Shown piece after piece: positions 1 through 16,149 of a DNA stretch of 64,000 bases. Every line of letters begins with the position of its first letter. The first letter of the stretch is position 1. Source of the DNA: Escherichia coli (GTDB lineage Bacteria > Pseudomonadota > Gammaproteobacteria > Enterobacterales > Enterobacteriaceae); the NCBI RefSeq assembly GCF_022846255.1, contig NZ_AP025682.1; one strand, 5' to 3'. Position numbers and translations under genes: made by a program. The notes below the pieces were generated by a model, which saw only the letters and a program-made list of their open reading frames with translations, was not told the origin of the DNA and searched no databases.

Positions 1-918
1 CTCCACGTGCCAGTGGTTTCGGATTGCTGTGGCGAACTTCTCTGCGGTTAAATCAGCAGAACTGATATAATATCTGACCGTCATTTCTGGCTATTTCTTT
101 TGTTCTGCTATTATGGACCGAAAGGAGACTGCCACGCATAATTTCTTCAGTCCTTTCCATTCAAACGTGAAATCAATAAGTTCATCAGGGACATCGCAAA
201 CAATATGAAGACGGATTTCTTCTCTGCCGTGACTTTTTTCACTAATTGCGTAACTGTCATGCTCTGGATTATTCAATTCTTTCAGCGGAAATTTTTCCTC
301 GAAGGCTTTATTTAGCCGCCCCTGGTTTCCTTTTACAGCGAATAAATAATCACCTCCCTGTTTTTGTATCTTCTCTGCAATATCTTTCTGGCAACCCATC
401 GCATCAGTTGTGATGATTTTTCCTTTAATATCCAGCATGTTAAGAAGTTCAGGGATAGCTGTAATTTCATTGGATTTCTCATCCGTCCTGATCTGTCCGA
501 TGACCAGACTGTGCATTGTTGAGAACGCACTAATGACATGAATCGCTCCCCTGCGGCGACTCTTGTCATAAGAATGTCGGAGCGTTTTTCCATCAATTGC
601 AATAACGTCTTTATCATCTGAAGAATGGCAGTCACGCATCCAGTTAATAAAGCACTCGTGAAATTTTGCAGGACTGATACAGGATACAACTCTGGCAATG
701 GTATCGTGAACAGGAATACCATTTTCAAAATCACCATATTGCTTCAAAAAATCGAGATGTGTTTCCCCAAAATCCTCTATATCTTCCCAGCCTTCTGCAC
801 CAGAAATAACGGCACAAATAGTCAACAGTAGAATATCCGATAATTTATGTTCCACTTTCCAGGCTTGTCTGTAATCGGGGATAATAGAAATATGTTCCAT
901 CAATTTTTTAAGTACCAT
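1..918 (-). mobile_element. ISAs1-family (H-repeat-associated) transposase gene, disrupted: in-frame TAG at 91-93, homologous reading frame continues to the window edge
   Basis: 275-aa [29 protein letters not shown]... matches the N-terminal three-quarters of E. coli H-repeat/ISAs1 transposases. Reverse-complement of 1-90 continues in frame as [30 protein letters not shown] after the stop. Confidence 0.7.
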
Positions 919-1147
919 TTTGTTCTCCTTAATTATGTAAGGAGTATTTGATCATGTATAAGCAATAAAAAACAGCTTCAGGTAATGAGGAATATCTCAA
1001 TTTTTAAACATAAAATGCGAATTATTTAGTACAAAAAAGCAGCGTTACGTGATCTTTCCCTGACTGTGTAGGAAAACAGGTTTCCAAGCCCTTCCGAACC
1101 ATTCATGCCTGCAAACAAAAGCAGCTGCGGCGGCACCGCACTACCAC

Positions 1148-1468
1148 TTACTGTGACGTTATGCGCCCCGGACCACCGGCAGCAAGCGACGCCGCCGCAT
1201 CCTGAACTGCACCAGCCATATCCGAGATCCCTGCTGCTGCAGCGGCAGCCTGCGCAGCAGCTACTGCTGCTTTAACCAGACCTGACGGTTCCGGCAACGC
1301 ACCAAACAGGTCCGCCGCTGCCTGTTCTGCCATCTCCTCGGCGGCACCAGATACATCGGTTACGGCTGAACCTGTGCTCATACCGCCACTTTCGCCAGCT
1401 ATTGGTGGTGTGGTGATGACGGGTCCACCGTTTCCAGCTGGTTTGTTACCCGTAGATACAAAACTCAT
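1148..1468 (-). CDS. hypothetical small Ala/Gly-rich protein (106 aa), no recognisable domain
   Basis: ORF with an AGGA-containing putative RBS upstream of the ATG; low-complexity A/G-rich translation; GC-rich relative to AT-rich flanks; lies just downstream of a putative immunity gene. Confidence 0.3.
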
Positions 1469-1492
1469 GATATTTATTCCTTTAATATCGGA

Positions 1493-1864
1493 TTAGAATT
1501 TAGCGCCCGGCTGCCAGAAAAAATAAGAAATAACCCGCCACTGTCCATCTTTATAATGAAAAAAACATGTCAGATTTAAATCCCCCCGCAAATGCCAAAA
1601 CATTTCTTTGATGGGAATATTTCTGAATTCAGTATTCGTTGAGCGATAGGTGTTTTCAATTTCTATATAATACTCACCGACAAATTTATAACGAGGCTTT
1701 ATAAATTCATACGCTGGCTGACCATAGTTATTTAATAGAACATTCTCTTCAACTCCATTATACACACCACTCGCATTCAGATAAGCATGCCCAGGAATAT
1801 CAGACATGCTATTTTTCGCCCCACCCACTATCAAAAAAATTATCACAGCGTATATTAGTTTCAT
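1493..1864 (-). CDS. putative periplasmic immunity protein (signal peptide), partner of the upstream HExxH protein
   Basis: N-terminal hydrophobic signal-like segment MKLIYAVIIFLIVGGAKN; start overlaps the stop of the upstream gene by 4 nt (translational coupling); no recognised domain. Confidence 0.4.
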   Translation of the reverse strand: MKLIYAVIIFLIVGGAKNSMSDIPGHAYLNASGVYNGVEENVLLNNYGQPAYEFIKPRYKFVGEYYIEIENTYRSTNTEFRNIPIKEMFWHLRGDLNLTCFFHYKDGQWRVISYFFWQPGAKF

Positions 1865-2601
1865 TTTTTTACGCTTTTCACAAAAAAATTAGAACCCGGA
1901 ACCATTCTATTTAACCGCTCAATGACATTTCTCATATAACGAGAGCGCAGTTCCATACCAATATTCATTAACGCACTGGCGTCCCCGGAGAATGGTGTAG
2001 TTGCTTTATCTGCATCATCACTATAGTATTCATCAGCAAGATATCCAATAATATGCCCAAGCTCGTGAGACAGCCCTATTTGCTCATGGCAAACTTTTGA
2101 TGAGCCAAGACATTTAGCTGCTGCAACTATATCTTTAGAGTCAAGTTCAACGTATCGACTATTCCAGACAATGGAACTCTGTCGAAAACTATTTGGATCA
2201 TCATTATCAATTTTAAACACCACCACATCCCAATACCCATGACGATCAGTCTGAATTATTTCTATTGAGAAAGATAAATCCTTACCATTAAACTTACTGG
2301 CAAACTCAGACTTCCCAGAAACGGATAAAAAAATCTTATTATTCCATGTTTGATTAATGACAAAAATAACTTTCCCATGAAAGGCATTTTTCTCCAAATC
2401 TGTCCAGTCAGTTTTTGCATCCCATCTTTTTATCCAATTATATTTCCATCTCAGCAACAATGAGATTGCACCATTTTCACGGTCAATTCTTAAATCTCCC
2501 CAGGCATCATTGTCCCTGATATATCGTTTATCCAGCATTAAGTCGTCATAAGCATCGTATGCCTGCTGAATAGCTTCATCATGAGAGTCACCCATGTTCA
2601 C
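1861..2601 (-). CDS. putative zinc-metallopeptidase-like protein (HExxH motif), candidate T6SS effector
   Basis: 246-aa ORF with strong RBS (AAGGAGG) and motif SHELGHIIGYLADEY; no signal peptide; followed by an overlapping signal-peptide ORF; located in the effector-rich tail of the T6SS island. Confidence 0.4.
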   Translation of the reverse strand: MNMGDSHDEAIQQAYDAYDDLMLDKRYIRDNDAWGDLRIDRENGAISLLLRWKYNWIKRWDAKTDWTDLEKNAFHGKVIFVINQTWNNKIFLSVSGKSEFASKFNGKDLSFSIEIIQTDRHGYWDVVVFKIDNDDPNSFRQSSIVWNSRYVELDSKDIVAAAKCLGSSKVCHEQIGLSHELGHIIGYLADEYYSDDADKATTPFSGDASALMNIGMELRSRYMRNVIERLNRMVPGSNFFVKSVKK

Positions 2602-2801
2602 CTCCTTATATTGCTATATATCCAATAAACCTGAAGATGCTTGCTTACCCACCAACGCAGACGGGACCAAGGGTAGCCTGAAGTCAACAGATAGCAGTCA
2701 ACTTGAAGTTCATGGGGATATTTGTTTCCCCATCTACACGTTTATCGTCATATTTTTGTATAGCTATTCTCAGCATTCGTGGGTAGATTATTTTTTTCCA
2801 A

Positions 2802-2906
2802 CCGCAGCGCATCCACATACCGCCCCTCGCTGTTCTGCTGCCACAACCAGCCCTGCCCCTGCTGCGCCTGCGTTAACATTTTTGCTAGCCAGCACGGTCA
2901 CGGCAG
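2802..2906 (-). repeat. degenerate ~105-bp copy of the 3' end of tagF (direct repeat of 3902-4007)
   Basis: Read by eye: ccgcagcgcatccacataccgcccctcgctgttctgctgccacaaccagccctgcccctgctgcgcctgcg... aligns with 3902-4007 at roughly 90% identity; the copy lacks the tagF stop context and sits between two effector/immunity modules. Confidence 0.8.
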
Positions 2907-2924
2907 GCAATTCCATGACAGGTA

Positions 2925-3398
2925 CTACTCATCCGTACAACCCAGCCCCCGGCGCTGAACCACTTCACTGGCAAACGTAGCTCCGGTTTTTTTCATTATT
3001 CCTTTTTGTATTTTTTGCAGCGCGGGAAATGAGATTCTCCTGCATGAATCCTCTTCCCATATATCACCAGTTACAGGACTAACTGAAAATAGTCCCCACA
3101 CATCTGTCGCTCCGGCGGAAGGAGAATCATAACCTACCCCAAAACTAAAATACCCAGGATGATACAGGTTACCTTTTTTATCTTTCAGAGAACCGTCAAG
3201 AAAAAACCCAGACAATTCCACATTATATTTTTCATTTTTTAGTGAAAAAACCAATAATGCCTGCGCCTGTATTTCAGTAAGACCTGACTGGTTAACAGTC
3301 GTTAGATCAAACCGCGGCACATTCCTGATAAGAATTTCAGCACAACAATTCACGGACACGACCATGAAAAGCAATACTGATATTAATTTACAGGACAT
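2925..3398 (-). CDS. putative periplasmic immunity protein (signal peptide) for the upstream GH73-like protein
   Basis: N-terminal signal-like segment MSCKLISVLLFMVVSVNCCA; overlaps the upstream gene by 16 nt; no recognised domain. Confidence 0.4.
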   Translation of the reverse strand: MSCKLISVLLFMVVSVNCCAEILIRNVPRFDLTTVNQSGLTEIQAQALLVFSLKNEKYNVELSGFFLDGSLKDKKGNLYHPGYFSFGVGYDSPSAGATDVWGLFSVSPVTGDIWEEDSCRRISFPALQKIQKGIMKKTGATFASEVVQRRGLGCTDE

Positions 3399-3853
3399 GT
3401 TATTCTCCGCTTAACCATATTAATCACCCACACTAACTCACTAGCATAACCGGTATGGCCGCCATTACTGTTTTTACCTGAATTAAAACCAGAATCAATC
3501 AATGCCTGCGCAAATTGCTCCGGAGATTTTTTATTTCTGACCGCATTACCAAATCGGATTGCAAAGGACTTTCCGCTAGTTGAAAAAAAGGTATAAGTGG
3601 CAACCCACACTTGATTACTCCCCAGCGGGTGAACCTGTCCTGACTGTAAAGGTGCCGGACCATGCATGGAAAAGTAGTTATTGTATTCTGTCGCGATTCT
3701 ACCCTGCCCGTAAAAGGACTCCTTTGCAGCAAGCCCCAGGATATTTTCCACAGGCACATCAAGTTGCTTAGCGATTAATTCACATTCTTTCAGATATTGC
3801 TGTACAAACCTGACTGCACCAGTGTTATTACAGGCTTTATCATAAGACCCCAT
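3383..3853 (-). CDS. GH73-like (FlgJ-type) N-acetylglucosaminidase-like protein, candidate peptidoglycan-targeting T6SS effector
   Basis: 156 aa, no signal peptide, RBS AAGGAG; motif LGLAAKESFYGQG...YNNYFSMHG resembles the GH73 catalytic region (AQAALESGWG...NNLFGIK) recalled from memory; immediately downstream of tagF. Confidence 0.45.
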   Translation of the reverse strand: MGSYDKACNNTGAVRFVQQYLKECELIAKQLDVPVENILGLAAKESFYGQGRIATEYNNYFSMHGPAPLQSGQVHPLGSNQVWVATYTFFSTSGKSFAIRFGNAVRNKKSPEQFAQALIDSGFNSGKNSNGGHTGYASELVWVINMVKRRITCPVN

Positions 3854-4836: not shown

Positions 4837-5313
4837 TTAATTCAGTTCCCAGAACCAGATTTCCTTGCAGCTAAAATAGCAATGTGAATGACATATAGCA
4901 CCTGTGGTAGAAGGCTCAATAAGATCTATATGACCGCCACCGTAACCCGTAATTTTCCAGAAAAAGACCACTCCTCTTTTATTACTGGTGTCTGTTTTAA
5001 ATTTTTCTGAGTCACACCAGATAACTGGTCTTCCAAAAACATCAGCTCGGGAAAGCTGATCTGCCAGTAATTTCGCACCGGTTTCTATTTTCTTCCCTTT
5101 CCAGTCACCACTTTTGATCGTCAGTCGCCCGTTAAAGCTGACGCCTGATTTAATCAGCGCCAGACTCATACGTGTGGCACAGGTATTTACATAACCAGCA
5201 TTTTGCTGTTGCAGTGCTTCATAGTTATAACCCACTTCACTGTACAAAACATCACCATCAATCTGAACTGATGAGTAATGGTTTTTTTTAAGTGTGAAAA
5301 ATGAAGGTTTCAT
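4837..5313 (-). CDS. tae4: Tae4-family peptidoglycan amidase effector
   Basis: 158 aa; motif NTCATRMSLALIKSG matches the Tae4 catalytic Cys region (NACPIRMSYVLN) and GGGHIDL the His region, by recall of Salmonella/Enterobacter Tae4; no signal peptide; start overlaps the stop of the upstream signal-peptide gene. Confidence 0.65.
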   Translation of the reverse strand: MKPSFFTLKKNHYSSVQIDGDVLYSEVGYNYEALQQQNAGYVNTCATRMSLALIKSGVSFNGRLTIKSGDWKGKKIETGAKLLADQLSRADVFGRPVIWCDSEKFKTDTSNKRGVVFFWKITGYGGGHIDLIEPSTTGAICHSHCYFSCKEIWFWELN

Positions 5314-6005
5314 TTATTATTTCCTTTATCACAGGAGTGTTTACTTAGTGCCTCAATAATAATATTTGCAGCCCGTTCATTCAGTTTATCTGACGTTTTT
5401 TTTCTGAAATACCAGTAAATAATCTCATCCAGTGTAACTGTTTTAATCGTTTTATAATCGCACCATGTTTTTCTTTCCGTGGCATCTTCTATACCCAAAA
5501 GATAGATTTTCGCATTAAGCCTATCCTGCCTGTTATCTGACTGCCAGAAGCGGAAAAAATCATCTCCGTTCAGATCGAACGCGCCAGAGGTCAGGTGTGA
5601 AACAGATGAATGCCGGGGAGATTTTTTTTCCGGTGATGCCATATCCGGGCAGGGAAACAGCCTGACCATCGCTTGTTCAATCAGAGTTGAAGCTCGCATA
5701 TTCATATCGTTAACCGACTGCTGATTAAGATATGTCAGTACCGATGAATAAAGTTCTATTTCATTAATCTTATTATATCCACACCAGGTTTTACTTTCTG
5801 TCGCATCACTCACACCAAGGACATACATCAGAACATTTTCTTTTTCCTGTGACGTTCCACGAGCATAAAATGACAAAAATTCCTGCGCACTGAGATTAAT
5901 ATAATCGGGGTCAATAGTTCCTGTGTTTTTTCTGATATCAGCAAAAACATTTCCTGACATGGCATATAACAAAAAAATAATAAAAAAACGCGTATATTGT
6001 TGCAT
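5310..6005 (-). CDS. tai4: Tai4-like periplasmic immunity protein, internally tandem-duplicated (two homologous domains)
   Basis: Signal peptide MQQYTRFFIIFLLYAMSGNVFA; the two halves are visibly homologous (…VLMYVLGVSDATESKTWCGYNKI… versus …KIYLLGIEDATERKTWCDYKTI…); 4-nt overlap with tae4. Confidence 0.5.
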   Translation of the reverse strand: MQQYTRFFIIFLLYAMSGNVFADIRKNTGTIDPDYINLSAQEFLSFYARGTSQEKENVLMYVLGVSDATESKTWCGYNKINEIELYSSVLTYLNQQSVNDMNMRASTLIEQAMVRLFPCPDMASPEKKSPRHSSVSHLTSGAFDLNGDDFFRFWQSDNRQDRLNAKIYLLGIEDATERKTWCDYKTIKTVTLDEIIYWYFRKKTSDKLNERAANIIIEALSKHSCDKGNNK

Positions 6006-6251: not shown

Positions 6252-9200
6252 TCACAGCGCTCGCTCCGGGCAGGCGAAGCGTTGTAATAGTCCGCGATCC
6301 ACTGGGTCAAAATCCCGTCCGGCGGTGATTTCCAGTATCACCCGCCGCCCGTCAAAGCTGTACTCCACCTGCTGTGTTCCCCGTACCGCCGTTTCTTGCG
6401 CTTTTCCCGCATCCAGCAGGTGAAACAGCGCCCACGGTCCATTAGTCAGCAGCGTCGAGGTGTCCTGGCGGATGCGCGGGCTGGCGGTTATTTCCGCCAT
6501 TGAGCCGTTGCGCGGACCCGGCCAGTTCACTTTCAGCGGCCTGACCGGGCCGTGAGCGTAACGCAGTACCTGGCCGTCAATGTCAATCACCAGTTCGGTG
6601 ATGGCCGGGTCCATATCCACGACGCGGACCTGCATCGCCCATGAGAACTTTTTCCCTCCGTCGCCGTTAAAAAACACGCTGCGGATCTGTTTCGCCTCCT
6701 GAAACGGCGTCAGGTCTGGACCCTGTAAGGTCATGTTGCCTTCGGTCGGTTTGTAGCGCCACGGGTTGCTGGCGGTATCCGCCAGTGGGGCCAGTTGCTT
6801 CGTCCAGAAGGCATCCAGCACGCCGCCGCTGGCAAAGATACGGTTAAAATCGTCCGCGCTGACCTCCTGCGGGCTGTCGGTGAAGGGGTAGCGCCCGTCG
6901 ATGGCGTCGCGGCACTCATCACCGATCACCGCCTCCATCTGCGCGTTCAGCACTTCACCGGTGCCGGCGTTGATTTTTCGCGTTCCCTGCTGCGTGAGAT
7001 CCAGCAGAATATTTTTCAGCGGCGCGGGCAGTTTTGCCGCCTCCAGTTGCAGTTTATCCGCCGCAGAAATGCGCCCCGGCAGAGTGCTCGCAGCCAGCGC
7101 ACTGTCGGCAATGGTGAGCTGGGTGTAGTACTCATTGAGCATCGTCAGCAGCGAATTTAATTGCGGCACGCCGCCGCCCTGCCCGCTGTCCGTCTGCCCG
7201 GAAACCACTTCCCGCAGGGCGGCGAAACGGTCATCCACCAGTGATTTTTCCAGCCGCTCTTCCGGGTGAATGTCCTGCAACAGCTTCGCCGTCTGCACCG
7301 CTTTTCCCGCATTGCCGGAGAGCCGGTCCTGCGCGCGCTGGGCCATCTGCTTTTGTCTGGCCTGCGCATTCAGCGGCGGCACCAGCGTGGTCTGCTCCAC
7401 CACCGCTTTACTCAGGCGCATCAGCGGGGAATCCGGCGAGGCCAGAGTACGCAGCACCTGAAGGTCATACGCTAGTCCAGGGCTACCGTCCTCCCCGGCG
7501 CTGTTGATGCTGTGAATGCTTGCCAGAAAATCCTGCCATCGGCGAGCATATTCAGCCAGGTACAGACGACGTACCTCACGGGTAACCGGGAGTTCCTGCC
7601 CCGGCAACTGGCTCATCACAATATCAGTCGTTTTTTTTTGCGCACTTTCCCGGCCCATCACCCAGGCGTCGTCCGCTGATGCGGCGGCGACAAACTCCGA
7701 CAGCCGTTTGTCGAACAGTTCCCGGTAGCCTTCGCGGGTGAAGATGCCGGGCACGCCCCTGTCCAGCGGCGCGCCATCCGTGCGGACAAAAACTGTTCCC
7801 GCATCCGCGCCCACAGCGCGAACCAGCGAAAACTCCTGCGGTGCTTCGCTCTCCATGGAAGCCAGGGCTCGAGTGTAGATACGCTCAGTGCTGGTATGGC
7901 CGTCAAGGAAGGCCCGCGCCTGGCGGATCAGCCCCTCATCTTTTTCCCAGGGCGAATGCACCACGCGGCTGCCGTCAAACAGGGCGTCAATATGCTCCAG
8001 CACGGCTGCGCGACCGCCAAACTCCGCTACGCTGTCGCGGTTGTCCAGATCGTTCAGCACCCAGGCGTGGATCTCCGCCGCGTTGTATTTGTCCTCGTGG
8101 TCCTTATCGAGGTTCAGCAGCAGATAAACATGCAGGGCGTCATAGGCGGCTTTGCTGTCCTGACGCGCAATCGCATCTGAAAGCACGTATTCCATTCGTT
8201 TCACCAGCGGAGGGAGCAGTAGCTGGTCCAGCAGGCGGTCATACAGGGATGCGACACTCTCCATCACCGGCGGGACGCTGTAAAGACCATAACGCCAGGC
8301 CAGCGGCGGCGAGTCCGGGTCCAGCCCCGGCCAGGCAGAGAGCGCCCGCGCCTGGTTCAGCAGGGCCGGAACAGGCTGCATAGCAGGTTTTCCGGTATAG
8401 GCTTTGACATCACCATCCAGTTGGGTCGTCCGGCTGGCGATTTCATTCAGATAACCGCTGTTACCCTGCTGGCTACCCTGCATTCCCTGCCACAACCAGA
8501 AAGCCAGCGCCAATACCAGCAGATGCCCGCCGGTACGCAGCAGGCGATAACGCCAGGCCCATTGAAGATTCGGCTCCACCAGGTGCGCTTCGCGGAAGAT
8601 AAACTGCGTCAGTAGATCGTGCAGGAAATAGCTGCGGTTGCCGTCCGGCAGGGTATGGGATGGGGAATCCGCCTTCCCTTTGATCGCCCGGACAAAACGC
8701 TGCCAGATGCCCGTCTGATCGGCCACCGCGTCTGCCTGCGCCTGCGCGGCACTGGTGAAAAATACGCCGCGCAGGGTGTTGTTAAGCTGGGTAGCATCAA
8801 ATTTTGAATCGAGGAAAATCTGTTCAATAGCTTCCAGCAGCGGCGCACCCAGCGCGGCAAATTCACGCGGGAAGCGGTAGAGCCGCTGACGGCTTTTAAG
8901 GTCATATTCTTCCTGCAACCGGGTATCCAGCCCCTGATCCAGCCGCTGTGTCAGGTTTGCCAGTTCCCGGCCACAGAGCGCATGCAGCGACTGCGGATCG
9001 CTGGCGTGACGCCTGCGGCTGTAAGGCAGGGTGAAGCCCCAGACCTGGGCTCGCAGGTGACTGGTCAACCCACGGAAATACTCCGTAAAGCCCGGCAGCA
9101 GATCCATCTTGGTGACAACCAGATAGACCGGAAAACGAATGCCCAGCGTCTCCCGCAGTTCCGCCAGCCGCGCACGCAGAGCTGCACAGGCAGCCAGCCG

Positions 9201-10118
9201 TTCCGCCGGGGACTGCGCGGTCAGATCCGCCACGTTCAGCGTCAGGATCACGCCGTTGAGCGGTGCGCCGGGGCGGTGTTTACGCAGCAGTCCCAGAAAC
9301 CCCTGCCACTCCCCGGCGTTGCGCTGGGTCGCGCTGATTTCGCCACCGTCATCGTGGCGAGCATAGCGCCCGGCGGTGTCAATAAGCACTGCTTCGTTGG
9401 TAAACCACCAGTCGCAGTGCAGCGTGCCGCCGCCCGGCACGGTGAGAATATGCGCGGTTTGCTCCATCTGCTCCGCCAGCGGAAACTGTAGCCCGGTGTT
9501 AAGCAGCGCGGTGGTTTTACCATCGCCGGGGCTGCCGATAACCATAAACCACGGCAGCTCGTACAGAAAACGCTTTCCTTCCAGGACTTTTCGCCAGCCA
9601 GGAAGATCCACACGCAGTTGTTTCAGTTGCCGGATGGCGCGGTTGACAATATGGCTGACGGTACGCAGGTCGGCTTTAATTTCCCCCTCCACCGGTACGT
9701 CTTCCCCACGCGGATGCAGGAAACGGCGCAGCAGTTGTTCATCCAGACGCAGCGCCCGCCACAGCCGGTACAGGCCATACAGCGCATAAGTCAGCAGGAT
9801 CAGACCGATAAGCGTCAGACGCAGCCACAGCGGCGCAAATGGATGAACATCACCGAGGGACAGCAGGGGTGAAACAAAACCGATGACCAGGCACAGAACC
9901 GTCACGCCAATGATGCTCATCGACCAGTTAACCAGCCACAGTGCGAGGAACATCAGTAACAGAACGATGGTGACTACCCGACTTCCCACAGACGCGAGCG
10001 GATGCACGGTGTCAAACGCCACCAGCGGCCCGATAAACCAGACCAGCAGCGCCAGTACCGCCACGCCGACAACAGCCAGCGCGCGGCGGGAAAACAGCAG
10101 ACTGAGAAATTTTTGCAT
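6252..10118 (-). CDS. tssM: T6SS membrane core protein TssM (IcmF family)
   Basis: 1288 aa; N-terminal transmembrane segments, Walker A GSPGDGKTT, large periplasmic C-terminal region; typical IcmF architecture. Confidence 0.9.
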   Translation of the reverse strand: MQKFLSLLFSRRALAVVGVAVLALLVWFIGPLVAFDTVHPLASVGSRVVTIVLLLMFLALWLVNWSMSIIGVTVLCLVIGFVSPLLSLGDVHPFAPLWLRLTLIGLILLTYALYGLYRLWRALRLDEQLLRRFLHPRGEDVPVEGEIKADLRTVSHIVNRAIRQLKQLRVDLPGWRKVLEGKRFLYELPWFMVIGSPGDGKTTALLNTGLQFPLAEQMEQTAHILTVPGGGTLHCDWWFTNEAVLIDTAGRYARHDDGGEISATQRNAGEWQGFLGLLRKHRPGAPLNGVILTLNVADLTAQSPAERLAACAALRARLAELRETLGIRFPVYLVVTKMDLLPGFTEYFRGLTSHLRAQVWGFTLPYSRRRHASDPQSLHALCGRELANLTQRLDQGLDTRLQEEYDLKSRQRLYRFPREFAALGAPLLEAIEQIFLDSKFDATQLNNTLRGVFFTSAAQAQADAVADQTGIWQRFVRAIKGKADSPSHTLPDGNRSYFLHDLLTQFIFREAHLVEPNLQWAWRYRLLRTGGHLLVLALAFWLWQGMQGSQQGNSGYLNEIASRTTQLDGDVKAYTGKPAMQPVPALLNQARALSAWPGLDPDSPPLAWRYGLYSVPPVMESVASLYDRLLDQLLLPPLVKRMEYVLSDAIARQDSKAAYDALHVYLLLNLDKDHEDKYNAAEIHAWVLNDLDNRDSVAEFGGRAAVLEHIDALFDGSRVVHSPWEKDEGLIRQARAFLDGHTSTERIYTRALASMESEAPQEFSLVRAVGADAGTVFVRTDGAPLDRGVPGIFTREGYRELFDKRLSEFVAAASADDAWVMGRESAQKKTTDIVMSQLPGQELPVTREVRRLYLAEYARRWQDFLASIHSINSAGEDGSPGLAYDLQVLRTLASPDSPLMRLSKAVVEQTTLVPPLNAQARQKQMAQRAQDRLSGNAGKAVQTAKLLQDIHPEERLEKSLVDDRFAALREVVSGQTDSGQGGGVPQLNSLLTMLNEYYTQLTIADSALAASTLPGRISAADKLQLEAAKLPAPLKNILLDLTQQGTRKINAGTGEVLNAQMEAVIGDECRDAIDGRYPFTDSPQEVSADDFNRIFASGGVLDAFWTKQLAPLADTASNPWRYKPTEGNMTLQGPDLTPFQEAKQIRSVFFNGDGGKKFSWAMQVRVVDMDPAITELVIDIDGQVLRYAHGPVRPLKVNWPGPRNGSMAEITASPRIRQDTSTLLTNGPWALFHLLDAGKAQETAVRGTQQVEYSFDGRRVILEITAGRDFDPVDRGLLQRFACPERAL

Positions 10119-10445
10119 TATTGTTCAGAACTCCACATTGTAATCATCAACAATAAAAGGCCACAAGCTGAAAATGTTTTCCCGATTCAGCACAAAAAAA
10201 TAGATGGCGATCCGAAACATCACTAAACCTGAAAAATAAAATTTCGCAGCATCATTTTATTTACATCATCACGCAACAACGTTGTCATTATAAGGTTTAT
10301 GCTCAATATTTTAATTTATATACAAAATCATTCGAGTTGCATCAAGGCGGCAAGCGAGAGGATCCCGAATCATTTATTCCGGTAAGTGACTCGGGTGAAC
10401 GAGTGCAGTCAACGCAGAGGCAACCTGAAGGATAAGGTGTATACA

Positions 10446-10901
10446 TCAAAATTCTCTGGATAGAATAATATAGCCATTGAATCTTACGGAACACTCATTT
10501 TCATTAATAAGGCCGGATGCAATAAAAACATCTTTCCCTCTGTCATTGTTAATATAGGTATATTTTGCCACAATAGACTTGGCATGATTTTCATAGTAGC
10601 TATCAAAATACGATTTTTCATCTAACATTGCCTTCTTATTTCTGGCTTTGTCCTTCTCATAATCAATCTTAGCCAGAGACTCTGCATAAAACTTAGACAC
10701 AGGAGAAACATCAAGAACTTCTACCCTTGTTTTATCTCTTAAAATAGTAGAAGAATTTATATTCAAATCACTTTTCATTGCATCAAATAACGACAACTCT
10801 ATTGAGGCTCCAACCGTAGCGCAACCATCATTTTGTGCATATGAAATTGCAGGTATGCCAGCTAACAGGCAGATTATTACCTTGAACATATTAGTCCTCA
10901 A
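10446..10901 (-). CDS. putative periplasmic immunity protein (Tldi-like) for the upstream L,D-transpeptidase-like effector
   Basis: 151 aa with signal peptide MRTNMFKVIICLLAGIPAISYA; AT-rich; overlaps the effector gene end by 11 nt. Confidence 0.45.
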   Translation of the reverse strand: MRTNMFKVIICLLAGIPAISYAQNDGCATVGASIELSLFDAMKSDLNINSSTILRDKTRVEVLDVSPVSKFYAESLAKIDYEKDKARNKKAMLDEKSYFDSYYENHAKSIVAKYTYINNDRGKDVFIASGLINENECSVRFNGYIILSREF

Positions 10902-11259
10902 CCACTAATATTTTATCAGTACTGGCAGCAATAACCTTGCGATAAGGTAAATCCAGAATTATACAGCCATCAGAGGCTTCTCCTGGATGGGCTGAACTCT
11001 CTCCGTGTATCATGAAACCGTCACGCCCGCACATTTGATTTTCGGGGTAAGGCGTGAGCCTCATCGTCCATGCTCTTGTTCTGGCATGAAAAAATGCAAG
11101 TCCAATTGTATATGTACCTCTTGGCAATGGTCCCTTATCTCTTACACACTCATTAACAGAGTCATCTTTAAAACCCGGTCTGCCAGAATATCTGGCATTG
11201 AACTGATAGCTACCATTTAAATAAAATGAACGTGCATTAATTTTGTATACCCAAGGCAT
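10891..11259 (-). CDS. Tlde1-like (DUF2778, L,D-transpeptidase-fold) T6SS effector
   Basis: 122 aa; motifs KGPLPRGTYTIG and FMIHGESSAHPGEASDGCIIL match the His-x(14-17)-S-x-G-C signature described for Tlde1/YkuD-like effectors; no signal peptide. Confidence 0.55.
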   Translation of the reverse strand: MPWVYKINARSFYLNGSYQFNARYSGRPGFKDDSVNECVRDKGPLPRGTYTIGLAFFHARTRAWTMRLTPYPENQMCGRDGFMIHGESSAHPGEASDGCIILDLPYRKVIAASTDKILVVED

Positions 11260-11350
11260 TACACAATCTCCTTTTTGTTAAAAAATAATAGTCAGATCAG
11301 AACACCATATTTTATTGTTAGTTTTCTGACCTAACCATAGTCATATTAAT

Positions 11351-12667
11351 TCACTCCACCACCAGAATTTCCACCCGACGGTTCTGCGCCCGTCCGGTTT
11401 TAGTGCGGTTATCGGTCACCGGTACGGTATCTCCTTTCCCGACAACCCGGATCCGGCGGGCCGGAATACCATCGGACGTCAGCAGTGAAGCCACTTCCGC
11501 CGCCCGTTTTTCCGACAATACCTGGTTGGACGGGAATTCAGCGGAGTGGATCGGCTGGCTGTCCGTGTGGCCGGTCACCGTCACCGCGCCCCCCACACGC
11601 GCAATCTCACGCGCGGCCTTGTCAATCACCGGGCGCAGCGCATCATTCACGGTTTTCTGCCCCGGTATAAACATCGTATCGCCACGAAAAATTACACGGC
11701 TGTGATGGTCATCTTCCTCCACCGTCAGCAGGCCACGGGCGATTTCGTTCGCCAGCAGGATTTTCAACCGCAGTTTATGCACCGGAACGGGTGGCGGAGG
11801 AAGATTTTTACCAATGGCGTCGATACGCTGTTGTACGGTTTCGGTGGCGAGGTTCATCCGGTGGCTGTAAAGGCCAAACAGCGTCAGCATCACCAGCAGG
11901 GCGATTCCGGCGCTCAGCCAGACCGGCACCCGGCGCATCCGCCGCATTCGCCCACTGACGGCACCGGCAAAACCCGGCGAGAGCGTCGGCGTGATCGGAT
12001 CGCGACGCTGGACCAGTTGAGTCAGCAGTTGCTGGCGGATATCGTCCAGTTGTTTACGCCCGTCAGGCCGTACACTGTAGCGGCCTTCAAAACCCAGTCC
12101 CAGAATGTGGTAAATGATTTCCAGTACATCGCTGTGCTCCTGGAAGCTGGCGGCCAGACGCCCGATTATCTGAAACAGCTTGATGCCGCCTTCACTTTCG
12201 CCATGAAAAGTCACCAGCAGGCTCTTCCCGGCCCAGACACCGCGTCGCCCCCAGACGGTGTTGTTGGCAGCTTCATCCAGCGCCGTGCACACGCAGTAAC
12301 GTACCGCCAGCACATGTTCGCGGCGCAGGTTTGCCTGGTCGCACAGCGTCTGATACCGGCGGACTTCACGCTCCAGTAGGGCGCGATAATGTTCGACAAA
12401 ACCAGGGGAAAGTTCACGGGGCATTTGCGCCAGCGCGCATAACAGAGGGCTGGCCGCCGCCAGAAGAGGATTCACAGCAGCAGTGATCTCAGCCAAGCGG
12501 AGCTTCAAATCTGGCCCGTCTTCAACCACCATTTTTATATCTTCCCTGCGAAGGCTGTCCTGGACGAGCGTATCGTAACCGTCATTATCAGGCGACCTTG
12601 TTCCCCTCATTGAAGGCTGTAATTGCAGGGTATTCACCGCAGGTTGCGTCAGAATATCGTCGGTCAT
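11351..12667 (-). CDS. tssL: TssL (DotU family) with C-terminal OmpA-like peptidoglycan-binding domain
   Basis: 438 aa; DotU-like N-terminal region, one transmembrane segment (VWLSAGIALLVMLTLFGLY), C-terminal OmpA/MotB-like motif GHTDSQ...NRRVEILV. Confidence 0.8.
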   Translation of the reverse strand: MTDDILTQPAVNTLQLQPSMRGTRSPDNDGYDTLVQDSLRREDIKMVVEDGPDLKLRLAEITAAVNPLLAAASPLLCALAQMPRELSPGFVEHYRALLEREVRRYQTLCDQANLRREHVLAVRYCVCTALDEAANNTVWGRRGVWAGKSLLVTFHGESEGGIKLFQIIGRLAASFQEHSDVLEIIYHILGLGFEGRYSVRPDGRKQLDDIRQQLLTQLVQRRDPITPTLSPGFAGAVSGRMRRMRRVPVWLSAGIALLVMLTLFGLYSHRMNLATETVQQRIDAIGKNLPPPPVPVHKLRLKILLANEIARGLLTVEEDDHHSRVIFRGDTMFIPGQKTVNDALRPVIDKAAREIARVGGAVTVTGHTDSQPIHSAEFPSNQVLSEKRAAEVASLLTSDGIPARRIRVVGKGDTVPVTDNRTKTGRAQNRRVEILVVE

Positions 12668-14611: not shown

Positions 14612-15103
14612 TTAAATTTCTTTGTTAGCTTTGAAATCGTAACCTGCCGTGATAGTGCCGCCGCTGCCGCCCTGCTGGTTCTGCACCACGTATTCCTGCT
14701 TCACGGTGCTGAAAGATAGTTCGACTCTCTCGCGGGAGGCGATCTCACCCTCCTTACTACCACTGGGGGAAACAACAGCCACAATCAGGTCAGTGAAGGT
14801 ATATTTGAGGTATTCCAGCGGATTGCCGCCTGCTTTGCGCATGACAAGGATGGACTTCGGAATATGCTTACCAGAGGCGCAGTATTTGAACAGGTTCGGG
14901 CTAGCGCGATCGATGTAATGTTCAAACTCCAGGTTAGTCACGGAGACTTTGCCGGATCCCAGACCGCTACCTGCGTGCATGGTGGACTCCTGGTGGATAT
15001 TCCAGCGCCAGCTCAGCACCTCAATTTCATTTTTATGTTTGTCATCCATTGACTCGCCGTCAATGCCGTCAATTTTCAGAAAAATGTCATAAGCCATTTT
15101 CAT
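14612..15103 (-). CDS. hcp: Hcp (TssD) tube protein
   Basis: 163 aa; AYDIFLKIDGIDGES...LSWRWNIHQ is the characteristic Hcp N-terminus; start may be the third codon (MAYD). Confidence 0.85.
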   Translation of the reverse strand: MKMAYDIFLKIDGIDGESMDDKHKNEIEVLSWRWNIHQESTMHAGSGLGSGKVSVTNLEFEHYIDRASPNLFKYCASGKHIPKSILVMRKAGGNPLEYLKYTFTDLIVAVVSPSGSKEGEIASRERVELSFSTVKQEYVVQNQQGGSGGTITAGYDFKANKEI

Positions 15104-15276: not shown

Positions 15277-15729
15277 CTATTTACATGTCACAGATACCGA
15301 TGACTCTCCTGGTACCCGCTGCCCCGGCAAAGAAGATGCCTGGCACTGTGTCGCCAATGCAGGGACCGGTTGTGATAACCAAACCTGTCCATGGTTATAA
15401 ATACAGGAAACCCAGTAACGTTCACTATTCTGATTACTGGCCATTGTGGTATCCCATATTTGCCTGGTTTCACCCTTTATTGTCTCTGTCTCTGGTTTTA
15501 GATCCACCCGATTTTCAGGTTTTCCCTGCGACATCCCTACCCCGTCCAACCACAGACGGGGTTCATAGCGGGAAGATCTCTGCCACGATGCAGATATATC
15601 TGGCTCCAGTACTGTTGTTGAGGATTTTATATTGATAAACACGGGGCAACTGACTTCCCACGCAGTAACAAATTGTGAATAAAACAACATAAAACCCAAC
15701 AACAGAGAAAAAATAAAACGTGTCCCCAT
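15277..15729 (-). CDS. secreted Cys-containing protein, putative immunity protein for the upstream small protein
   Basis: 150 aa with signal-like N-terminus MGTRFIFSLLLGFMLFYSQFVTA; AT-rich; directly downstream (13-nt gap) of a 135-aa cytoplasmic-type ORF. Confidence 0.35.
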   Translation of the reverse strand: MGTRFIFSLLLGFMLFYSQFVTAWEVSCPVFINIKSSTTVLEPDISASWQRSSRYEPRLWLDGVGMSQGKPENRVDLKPETETIKGETRQIWDTTMASNQNSERYWVSCIYNHGQVWLSQPVPALATQCQASSLPGQRVPGESSVSVTCK

Positions 15730-15741
15730 TGAATCTATCCT

Positions 15742-16149
15742 CTACTCAATAATATAAAAAGCTTCCGCATTATTACTGGCATCAGGATATGTTCCATCGC
15801 TGCGCATTCCACCTTTTCGGGAAATAGGGCGTGCAGAGACTTTCGTGGTTTTACCTGTCCACTGGTCCATAACATAAATATACTGACTATCCTGTTCCAG
15901 ATAGAAAGCGGCATGCTTATGCTCATTCTGCCTCGAGGGATACTTTCCGTTAACAAAAGTGGCAATTGCTGTTCCTCTGGGGATCGATTTATCCCCAAAA
16001 ACCTTTCGCCCCTGCTTCCAGGCTCCAGTATTCCCCACATGTGCATATACCTGAACTAAGAACACACATTCCTTTCTGTCTCCTGCCCCCGCCATTCCCA
16101 CCATGTCAGTGCCCTGCAATGAATCTACCAGTCCATAAACATATGCCAT
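15742..16149 (-). CDS. hypothetical small protein, candidate Hcp-dependent effector (possible Cys/His hydrolase)
   Basis: 135 aa, no signal peptide; Cys28 and a His cluster (EHKHAAFY) about 50 residues downstream; sits between tssC and hcp, followed by a signal-peptide ORF. No motif confidently recognised. Confidence 0.3.
   Translation of the reverse strand: MAYVYGLVDSLQGTDMVGMAGAGDRKECVFLVQVYAHVGNTGAWKQGRKVFGDKSIPRGTAIATFVNGKYPSRQNEHKHAAFYLEQDSQYIYVMDQWTGKTTKVSARPISRKGGMRSDGTYPDASNNAEAFYIIE

Follow-up and report, generated by a model that had tools for sequence, protein, structure and literature searches.

A gene pair between tssL and tssM

What is encoded by the two small genes that separate tssL from tssM in a type VI secretion system (T6SS) cluster of Escherichia coli, and can the strain that carries them still use them as a weapon? 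The genes lie in a 64,000-nucleotide stretch of contig NZ_AP025682.1 (assembly GCF_022846255.1), which we refer to as the window. Our analysis indicates that they are very probably a T6SS cargo effector gene and its immunity gene, that they belong to the Tlde1 family and, most likely, that they represent the Tlde1b (Tae6/Tai6) type. We infer that Tae6 and Tlde1b are the same subfamily.

The pair is flanked by two core genes of the secretion system, as a preliminary description of this DNA had stated: tssL, in its long form with an OmpA-like C-terminus, lies upstream (11351..12667, minus strand), and tssM lies downstream (6252..10118, minus strand). The effector gene occupies 10891..11259 on the minus strand and encodes 122 residues. 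Its ATG at 11259 is preceded, at a distance of 8 nt, by an AGGAG ribosome-binding site (11268..11272), and its product is identical to WP_244331572.1, which RefSeq already names 'tlde1 domain-containing protein'.

The start of the partner gene required closer inspection. The longest-open-reading-frame rule gives a protein of 151 residues (10446..10901, minus strand) that starts from a TTG at 10901. Both reading frames are found at the coordinates of the preliminary description, on the minus strand, and this start implies the 11-nt overlap that it reported. However, the TTG falls within the Shine-Dalgarno sequence (GAGGA, 10895..10899, minus strand) located 5 nt before a better start, the ATG at 10889, and the overlap is therefore doubtful. 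The ATG is also the start chosen by PGAP in 99%-identical genomes, and most homologues in the partner-family alignment start at, or one residue from, the column of the Met encoded there. The partner is thus most likely a protein of 147 residues (10446..10889, minus strand; identical to WP_244331571.1) whose gene begins after a 1-nt gap from the effector stop codon, and the overlap is probably wrong. The GAGGA site is embedded in the last codons of the effector gene, suggesting translational coupling.

Both reading frames are real genes rather than chance ones, as they are conserved across many Enterobacterales genera, show low ratios of nonsynonymous to synonymous substitution (about 0.12–0.17 for the effector and 0.12–0.21 for the partner) and form a low-GC cassette between core genes. 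These ratios indicate that purifying selection acts on both genes. The GC content of the cassette is 33–44%, as compared to about 60% in the surrounding core genes.

The effector belongs to the Tlde1 family

The preliminary description had proposed a Tlde1-like protein of L,D-transpeptidase fold and had suggested a Pfam search as a check. The effector matches Tlde1_dom (PF10908, formerly DUF2778) with E=2.3e-12 and 47.8 bits over residues 23–104, and the proposal is further supported by the fold and by the conservation of His85 and Cys99. The Pfam match to YkuD is weak (E=0.012), no NCBIfam model matched the effector, and PADLOC found nothing. Among 5.8 billion proteins, 93 relatives were detected, all but one of which carry PF10908. 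They come from Citrobacter, Salmonella, Cronobacter, Enterobacter, Lelliottia, Gibbsiella, Nissabacter, Rahnella, Erwinia and Pantoea, with remoter members in Burkholderia and Paraburkholderia. The sequence has no signal peptide.

The AlphaFold model of the effector is of high confidence (pLDDT 94, pTM 0.87). At E<=0.001, its Foldseek matches are enzymes of the L,D-transpeptidase (YkuD-like) fold, mostly L,D-transpeptidases, together with the structure 7UO8 of Tlde1a, the characterised family member of Salmonella Typhimurium. The predicted model therefore has the fold expected of a Tlde1 protein. On the other hand, searches of the PDB with phmmer and with a profile of 42 family sequences did not reach Tlde1a, and the sole match was a weak one to the YkuD protein 4LPQ (E=0.17). 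Since sequence searches of the PDB miss Tlde1a, structure comparison was needed.

An alignment of profiles with hhalign paired residues 45–122 of the effector with residues 76–167 of Tlde1a (E=5e-5, probability 67%). The Tlde1a sequence was taken from a Salmonella locus in which it stands beside a DUF2195 gene (L056:15644-16162); published Tlde1a numbering is one higher than that of this reading frame, and the equivalences were adjusted. In this alignment, Arg79, His85, Ser96, Asp97, Gly98 and Cys99 of the effector correspond to R115, H121, S128, H129, G130 and C131 of Tlde1a, and Cys77 corresponds to C111. In Tlde1a, C131 is the nucleophile and forms the catalytic pocket with H121 and H129, while S128 bridges H121 and C131 and H129 helps to position D-Ala4 (PMC9638812). 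The H129A mutation greatly reduced cross-linking and partly reduced carboxypeptidase activity, leaving D-amino-acid exchange normal, and the disulfide of Tlde1a connects C37 and C111 (PMC9638812).

Cys99, Gly98, Arg79 and Arg107 are invariant in 42 effector homologues, and His85 and Ser96, among others, are kept in at least 90% of them. We accordingly predict His85 and Cys99 to be the catalytic residues, with Ser96, Asp97, Gly98 and Arg79 nearby. A disulfide between Cys38 and Cys77, both of which are conserved, is probable. The peptides GPLPRGTYTIG and HGESSAHPGEASDGCII cited in the preliminary description are both present. Of the motif H...(S/T)HGCh, the effector keeps His85, Ser96, Gly98, Cys99 and Ile100, all of them conserved and the first four aligned with H121, S128, G130 and C131 of Tlde1a, whereas Asp97 stands in place of the His before Gly-Cys. 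The predicted base and nucleophile are in place, and the literal motif is not. The resulting SDGC motif is near-universal in the Enterobacterales clade, and SNGC, SHGC, SQGC and STGC occur in other members.

The sequence evidence thus places the effector in the Tlde1 family and, most likely, in the subfamily Tlde1b (Tae6). It is short and single-domain, and it has no cap insert; according to the Journal of Biological Chemistry (JBC) paper on the family, this insert occurs in Tlde1a only (PMC9638812). A near-identical sequence is present in the family alignment supplied with the same paper.

The partner is a probable immunity protein

As the preliminary description had noted, the partner carries a signal peptide, MFKVIICLLAGIPAISYA. 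It is of the Sec type: basic residues at the start are followed by a hydrophobic core of 12 residues and a cleavage-type site, Ser-Tyr-Ala, and the same pattern recurs in all homologues. Cleavage probably occurs before Gln19. Two cysteines, Cys23 and Cys133 in the numbering of the 147-residue precursor, are invariant. The shared signal peptide and the invariant cysteines fit a Sec-exported, disulfide-bonded periplasmic protein.

No domain was found in the partner by Pfam, and no relative among the solved structures searched by sequence. Its predicted fold gave only weak cystatin- or NTF2-like PDB matches, a fold-level resemblance to alpha+beta roll proteins, and no close match among solved structures. 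The family is small, with 68 representatives at 50% clustering. The closest full-length relatives outside E. coli and Citrobacter are very common Salmonella proteins named 'SciR / Shiga-like toxin A subunit' (72–76% identity), and identity to the SciR representative P0141 is 73%. We take Salmonella SciR to be the published orphan Tai6 (Tldi1b, probably STM14_0332), an identification of our own.

The partner is thus the probable cognate immunity protein, of the Tldi1b/Tai6 type and SciR family, on the basis of its signal peptide, its position directly downstream of the effector in homologous loci and its homology to SciR. It is adjacent to the effector gene and has its own ribosome-binding site. 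Sequence divergence is faster in the partner than in the effector (for example, 55% versus 82% identity), and the divergences of the two proteins are correlated (Spearman 0.80), in part through phylogeny. When effector and partner were modelled as one chain, the pTM was 0.83 despite a disordered 30-residue linker, and the folded part of the partner had a pLDDT of 86–97 per 10-residue block, with lower values in the first few residues beside the linker. This pTM suggests, without proving, a defined effector–partner complex.

The module in Salmonella and other genera

The closest counterpart of the pair is found in Salmonella. Strains with an 87%-identical effector of 122 residues have the gene order hcp-tssJ-tssK-tssL-Tlde1(122 aa)-143 aa-tssM, the same architecture as in the window, where TssK, TssJ and Hcp are encoded upstream of TssL. 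A Tae6/Tai6 pair has been described in SPI-6 of S. Fresno (Tae6, WP_058115706.1). For S. Typhimurium, the same study describes an orphan Tai6, STM14_0332, which lies "in the same genomic location" beside the Rap1a homologue STM14_0331, and it lists Escherichia among the Tae6 genera (bioRxiv 10.1101/2020.02.18.954545). This work is the preprint of Sibinelli-Sousa et al. 2020, which is cited in PMC9638812. In S. Typhimurium-type loci we found tssL-Rap1a(257)-SciR(147)-tssM with no effector, which matches the published orphan Tai6 beside a Rap1a homologue, and in these loci Tldi1a/Tlde1a lie downstream of tssM and tagF. With 87% identity in the same slot, and with effector homologues in the genera of the published Tae6 list, the pair shows no essential difference from the Salmonella SPI-6 Tae6/Tai6 module and can be regarded as its E. 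coli orthologue.

To place the module more broadly, we scanned one genome per GTDB species with an alignment of the 22 closest sequences, which yielded 48 loci and 43 full-length effector homologues. The partner homologue follows immediately downstream on the same strand in 33 of the 43. Immediately upstream, hcp (TIGR03344, E 1e-36 to 1e-46) is present in 22 of the 43, and its stop codon often overlaps the effector start. The association with T6SS genes expected of a Tlde1 member is thus seen both in the tssL–tssM position and in the linkage to hcp. In other genera the hcp that the pair usually follows is an orphan, which indicates that the module travels mainly as an hcp–effector–immunity island. 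Among the scanned loci, the tssL–tssM position was found only in Citrobacter amalonaticus (L005), with a broken immunity gene and with a piece of tssM upstream of the effector. The module occupies the tssL–tssM slot in the Salmonella, E. coli and Citrobacter cluster lineage.

Several of the scanned loci deviate from the simple pair. Two effector–immunity pairs occur in tandem in L015 (6001-8020) and about 5 kb apart in L027 (5905-6815 and 11514-12313), and two tandem immunity genes are present in L021:6366-7429 and L052:6105-7108. Such doubled pairs and immunity genes are typical of immunity-gene accretion. In Escherichia sp. ESNIH1 (L017:5510-6369), hcp is followed by a 73%-identical effector, and no homologue of the immunity family was detected downstream; this effector may have a different immunity protein. 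The protein P0054, which its Pfam domains had marked as an "Hcp-Tlde1 fusion", joins a truncated Hcp to an effector that lacks the first ~24 residues, and the contig that encodes it is 1.5 kb long. We regard it as a probable deletion or assembly chimera and did not use it as evidence.

Cassette exchange at the tssL–tssM junction

A tssL of this type is present in 114 of 5426 complete E. coli genomes, and 14 of them carry the Tlde1b cassette. In 97 complete genomes the slot holds another cassette, which encodes a 224-residue protein and a protein of 81–95 residues, the latter named 'DUF2645 family' in one RefSeq record. The 224-residue protein has no Pfam, NCBIfam or PADLOC match. Examples are strains 05-3629 (L002:3018-3988) and Ec-U9-1 (L003:3018-3988), and the two genes are a candidate for an uncharacterised effector/immunity pair. 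When the window was compared with the 05-3629 locus by blastn, homology ended at 10174 on the tssM side and resumed at 11351 on the tssL side, which defines a swappable cassette of ~1.2 kb (about 10175..11350) that coincides with the low-GC segment. The tssL–tssM junction is thus a swappable cargo slot.

Three complete genomes have lost the T6SS island, and what they retain is an IS1 together with 49 bp of the immunity gene. In these strains, C9 (L004:4001-4761), EA7 and SL124, the whole island is gone between yafV and tRNA-Asp, the IS1 is frameshifted and the 49-bp remnant is 100% identical. The remnant indicates that the island was lost from an ancestor carrying this cassette.

The spacer between the immunity gene and tssM measures 327 bp (10119..10445). 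Within it, an ERIC/IRU-like dispersed intergenic repeat (10325..10450) lies directly after the immunity stop codon. Copies of this repeat with 60–90% identity occur in 5425 of 5426 E. coli genomes, with a median of seven copies per genome, and it folds as an imperfect hairpin (-30.6 kcal/mol, z -1.85). It matches what we take to be the ERIC2 primer sequence with two mismatches, where no match is expected by chance. A 33-nt direct repeat at a spacing of 441 nt had prompted the idea that the spacer is a decayed second immunity gene. This was rejected, as neither a six-frame hmmsearch nor tblastn detected any similarity to the immunity family there; the direct repeat is probably a chance occurrence in AT-rich DNA.

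The T6SS cluster and the state of its spike

The region is 99.3–99.6% identical to that of 14 complete E. coli chromosomes. In strain E04, the T6SS island lies between tRNA-Asp/dnaQ and yafV/ivy/fadE and contains tssA, B, C, E, F, G, H, J, K, L and M, hcp, vgrG, tagF, tagJ, tagK and several cargo modules. In the window, by contrast, only a stump of vgrG is left, next to the transposase gene of an ISAs1-like element (ISEc1; 91..918, minus strand), and the two lie within 1..1468. The reading frame of the stump (1148..1468) encodes 106 residues, the first 101 of which match the start of the 737-residue VgrG of E04 (100/101 identical). The vgrG-DcrB-Rhs segment of E04 is absent from the window.

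Other cargo-like genes are present in the cluster. After tagF lie genes for a Tge2-like glucosaminidase (3383..3853, minus strand, 156 residues) and a Tgi2P-like signal-peptide protein (2925..3398, minus strand, 157 residues), which are 61% and 58% identical to a Salmonella SPI-6 pair; E04, although 99.7% identical elsewhere, lacks this segment of ~1 kb. Just upstream of vgrG, a 246-residue protein with a HELGH zinc-peptidase-like motif (1861..2601, minus strand) is followed by a 123-residue protein with a hydrophobic N-terminus (1493..1864, minus strand). Neither has a match in NCBIfam, and the two may be an uncharacterised effector/immunity pair. A Tae4-family amidase (4837..5313, minus strand) is accompanied by a 231-residue double Rap1a/Tai-type protein (5310..6005, minus strand), whose counterpart in E04 is two separate Rap1a/Tai reading frames. 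Between tssC and hcp, a BPSL0067-family protein (15742..16149, minus strand) stands with an STY0301-family signal-peptide protein (15277..15729, minus strand).

Comparison with characterised enzymes

The characterised comparison pair is Tlde1a/Tldi1a of S. Typhimurium (STM14_0336/STM14_0335; PDB 7UMA, 7UO3 and 7UO8). With Tlde1a, the effector shares the catalytic His and Cys, the bridging Ser, one disulfide, and the Arg and Gly that belong to the exchange pocket. Like Tlde1a, it appears to be a small T6SS cargo effector from an SPI-6-type cluster, with an immunity protein in the periplasm. However, the two effectors are only 17–18% identical, Tlde1a has 172 residues as compared to 122 here, its capping subdomain is absent from our effector, and its motif is SHGC rather than SDGC. 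The loci differ as well, since the immunity gene comes first in Tlde1a and the pair lies downstream of tssM/tagF. Tldi1a is a DUF2195 protein, whereas the partner here comes from an unrelated family without a Pfam domain; BLASTP between the partner and the Salmonella DUF2195 protein gave E=2.4, and the partner has no DUF2195 domain.

The L,D-carboxypeptidases Pgp2 (C. jejuni, 6XJ7), Csd6 (H. pylori, 4XZZ) and Bd1075 (7O21) are 12–15% identical to the effector. They are secreted multi-domain housekeeping enzymes of cell shape, with 268–316 residues in the solved chains. None of them is T6SS cargo or comes with an immunity protein.

Proposed mechanism and alternative explanations

The mechanism that we propose takes its chemistry from the analogy with Tlde1a. 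The effector, which has no signal peptide, would probably travel inside the Hcp tube of the E. coli T6SS and reach the periplasm of Gram-negative neighbours when the apparatus fires; the hcp gene of the cluster (14612..15103, minus strand) is the candidate for this carrier role. Delivery by Hcp is suggested by the small size of the effector, by the lack of linkage to a VgrG, PAAR or adaptor, and by the adjacency to hcp in other genera. In the target periplasm, Cys99 would act as the nucleophile and His85 as the general base, forming a thioester with the carbonyl group of meso-diaminopimelic acid (mDAP3) in tetrapeptide stems and releasing D-Ala4. Hydrolysis of the acyl-enzyme would amount to L,D-carboxypeptidase activity, and its attack by a free D-amino acid to an exchange reaction. 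In both cases, the normal substrates of cross-linking would be depleted and the wall weakened. The 147-residue partner would be exported by Sec to the periplasm of the producer, where it would bind and block effector molecules arriving from sister cells.

Several observations weigh against this picture. The effector lacks the capping subdomain, which is required for the toxicity of Tlde1a, and has Asp97 where Tlde1a and the classical L,D-transpeptidases have His. Its sequence similarity to Tlde1a is very low, as reflected by the failure of the PDB searches and the modest hhalign probability, and the partner, judged by its sequence, is unrelated to Tldi1a. Furthermore, the spike gene (vgrG) and the Rhs effector gene of the cluster are destroyed in this strain, so that delivery here may rely on a VgrG from outside the window or may no longer occur.

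The differences from Tlde1a bear on the chemistry. With Asp in place of His and without the cap, the enzyme could differ in its balance of activities or in its substrate. It is conceivable, although we consider it rather unlikely, that this Tlde1-family module has a chemistry unlike that of Tlde1a and acts as a pure L,D-carboxypeptidase, as a 3-3 L,D-endopeptidase or as a DpaA-like amidase that releases Lpp from peptidoglycan. The prevalence of SDGC in the Enterobacterales clade, the varied residue at this site in other members and the short, insert-free chain would be in line with this. On the other hand, Arg79 and Gly98 are invariant, and the corresponding R115 and G130 were taken by the JBC authors as indicating shared D-amino-acid exchange (PMC9638812); the fold matches do not discriminate among the candidate activities. 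A related, equally tentative idea is that Tlde1b forms a functionally distinct minimal branch, cap-less and with Asp for the second His, whose weakly cystatin-like immunity protein might plug the Cys active site. If true, this would add a new class to the protein inhibitors that act on YkuD-fold enzymes. A housekeeping role, in which the 122-residue protein is a peptidoglycan-remodelling L,D-transpeptidase and its neighbour an unrelated periplasmic protein, agrees with the YkuD-type fold and the weak YkuD Pfam match. We regard it as very improbable: the effector has neither a signal peptide nor a membrane anchor, one of which an enzyme of the periplasm would require. Moreover, the gene is confined to 14 of 5426 complete E. 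coli genomes, lies in a low-GC cassette within a T6SS operon, follows hcp in other genera and is tightly coupled to a conserved secreted partner.

The damaged spike raises the separate question of whether the pair still serves as a weapon in this strain. Since the vgrG of the cluster is truncated, the machine may not fire unless another VgrG lies outside the window; if it cannot fire, only the immunity function would matter. The effector would then be stranded and the immunity gene would guard against neighbours armed with Tlde1b, a situation that we consider possible but not the likelier one. It would accord with the 106-residue vgrG remnant abutting the ISAs1-like element and the missing vgrG-DcrB-Rhs segment, with the orphan immunity gene that most Salmonella keep at the tssL–tssM slot, and with the loss of the whole island in some E. 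coli. However, both reading frames are intact and 99.3–99.6% identical to those of the 14 complete genomes, the other core genes appear intact, and E. coli strains often carry additional vgrG genes elsewhere. As for the partner, databases name WP_244331571.1 "Shiga toxin A subunit" or "hypothetical protein", and NCBI and UniRef widely list members of its family (proteins P0094-P0213) under the names 'Shiga toxin A subunit' and 'SciR Shiga-like toxin A subunit', a misnaming that has propagated widely. Weak NCBIfam matches to the Stx2 A subunit do exist over residues 1–109 (E about 0.003), but they score 13–17 bits against curated cut-offs of 600–736 bits. The protein has 147 residues as compared to about 319, only the N-terminal third of Stx A is covered, there is no Pfam match, and the predicted fold is weakly cystatin/NTF2-like. 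We therefore reject the Shiga-like toxin reading and retain the partner as the probable immunity protein of a Tlde1b-type effector.

Significance

Earlier publications already describe the Tlde1 family with this subfamily and its occurrence in Escherichia, as well as the Salmonella module at precisely this position and the orphan immunity gene. A literature search on Tlde1b, Tldi1b, Tae6 and Tai6 returned only the founding preprint as relevant, with no biochemistry reported for any Tlde1b member. Our analysis confirms the presence, in some E. coli, of a Tlde1b/Tldi1b module at the position that it has in Salmonella. Its practical value is small, but the "Shiga toxin A subunit" misnaming of the immunity protein could mislead pathogen typing. 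For the family as a whole, the activity of an enzyme with Asp for His and no cap, paired with an unrelated immunity protein, bears on the extent of divergence within Tlde1.

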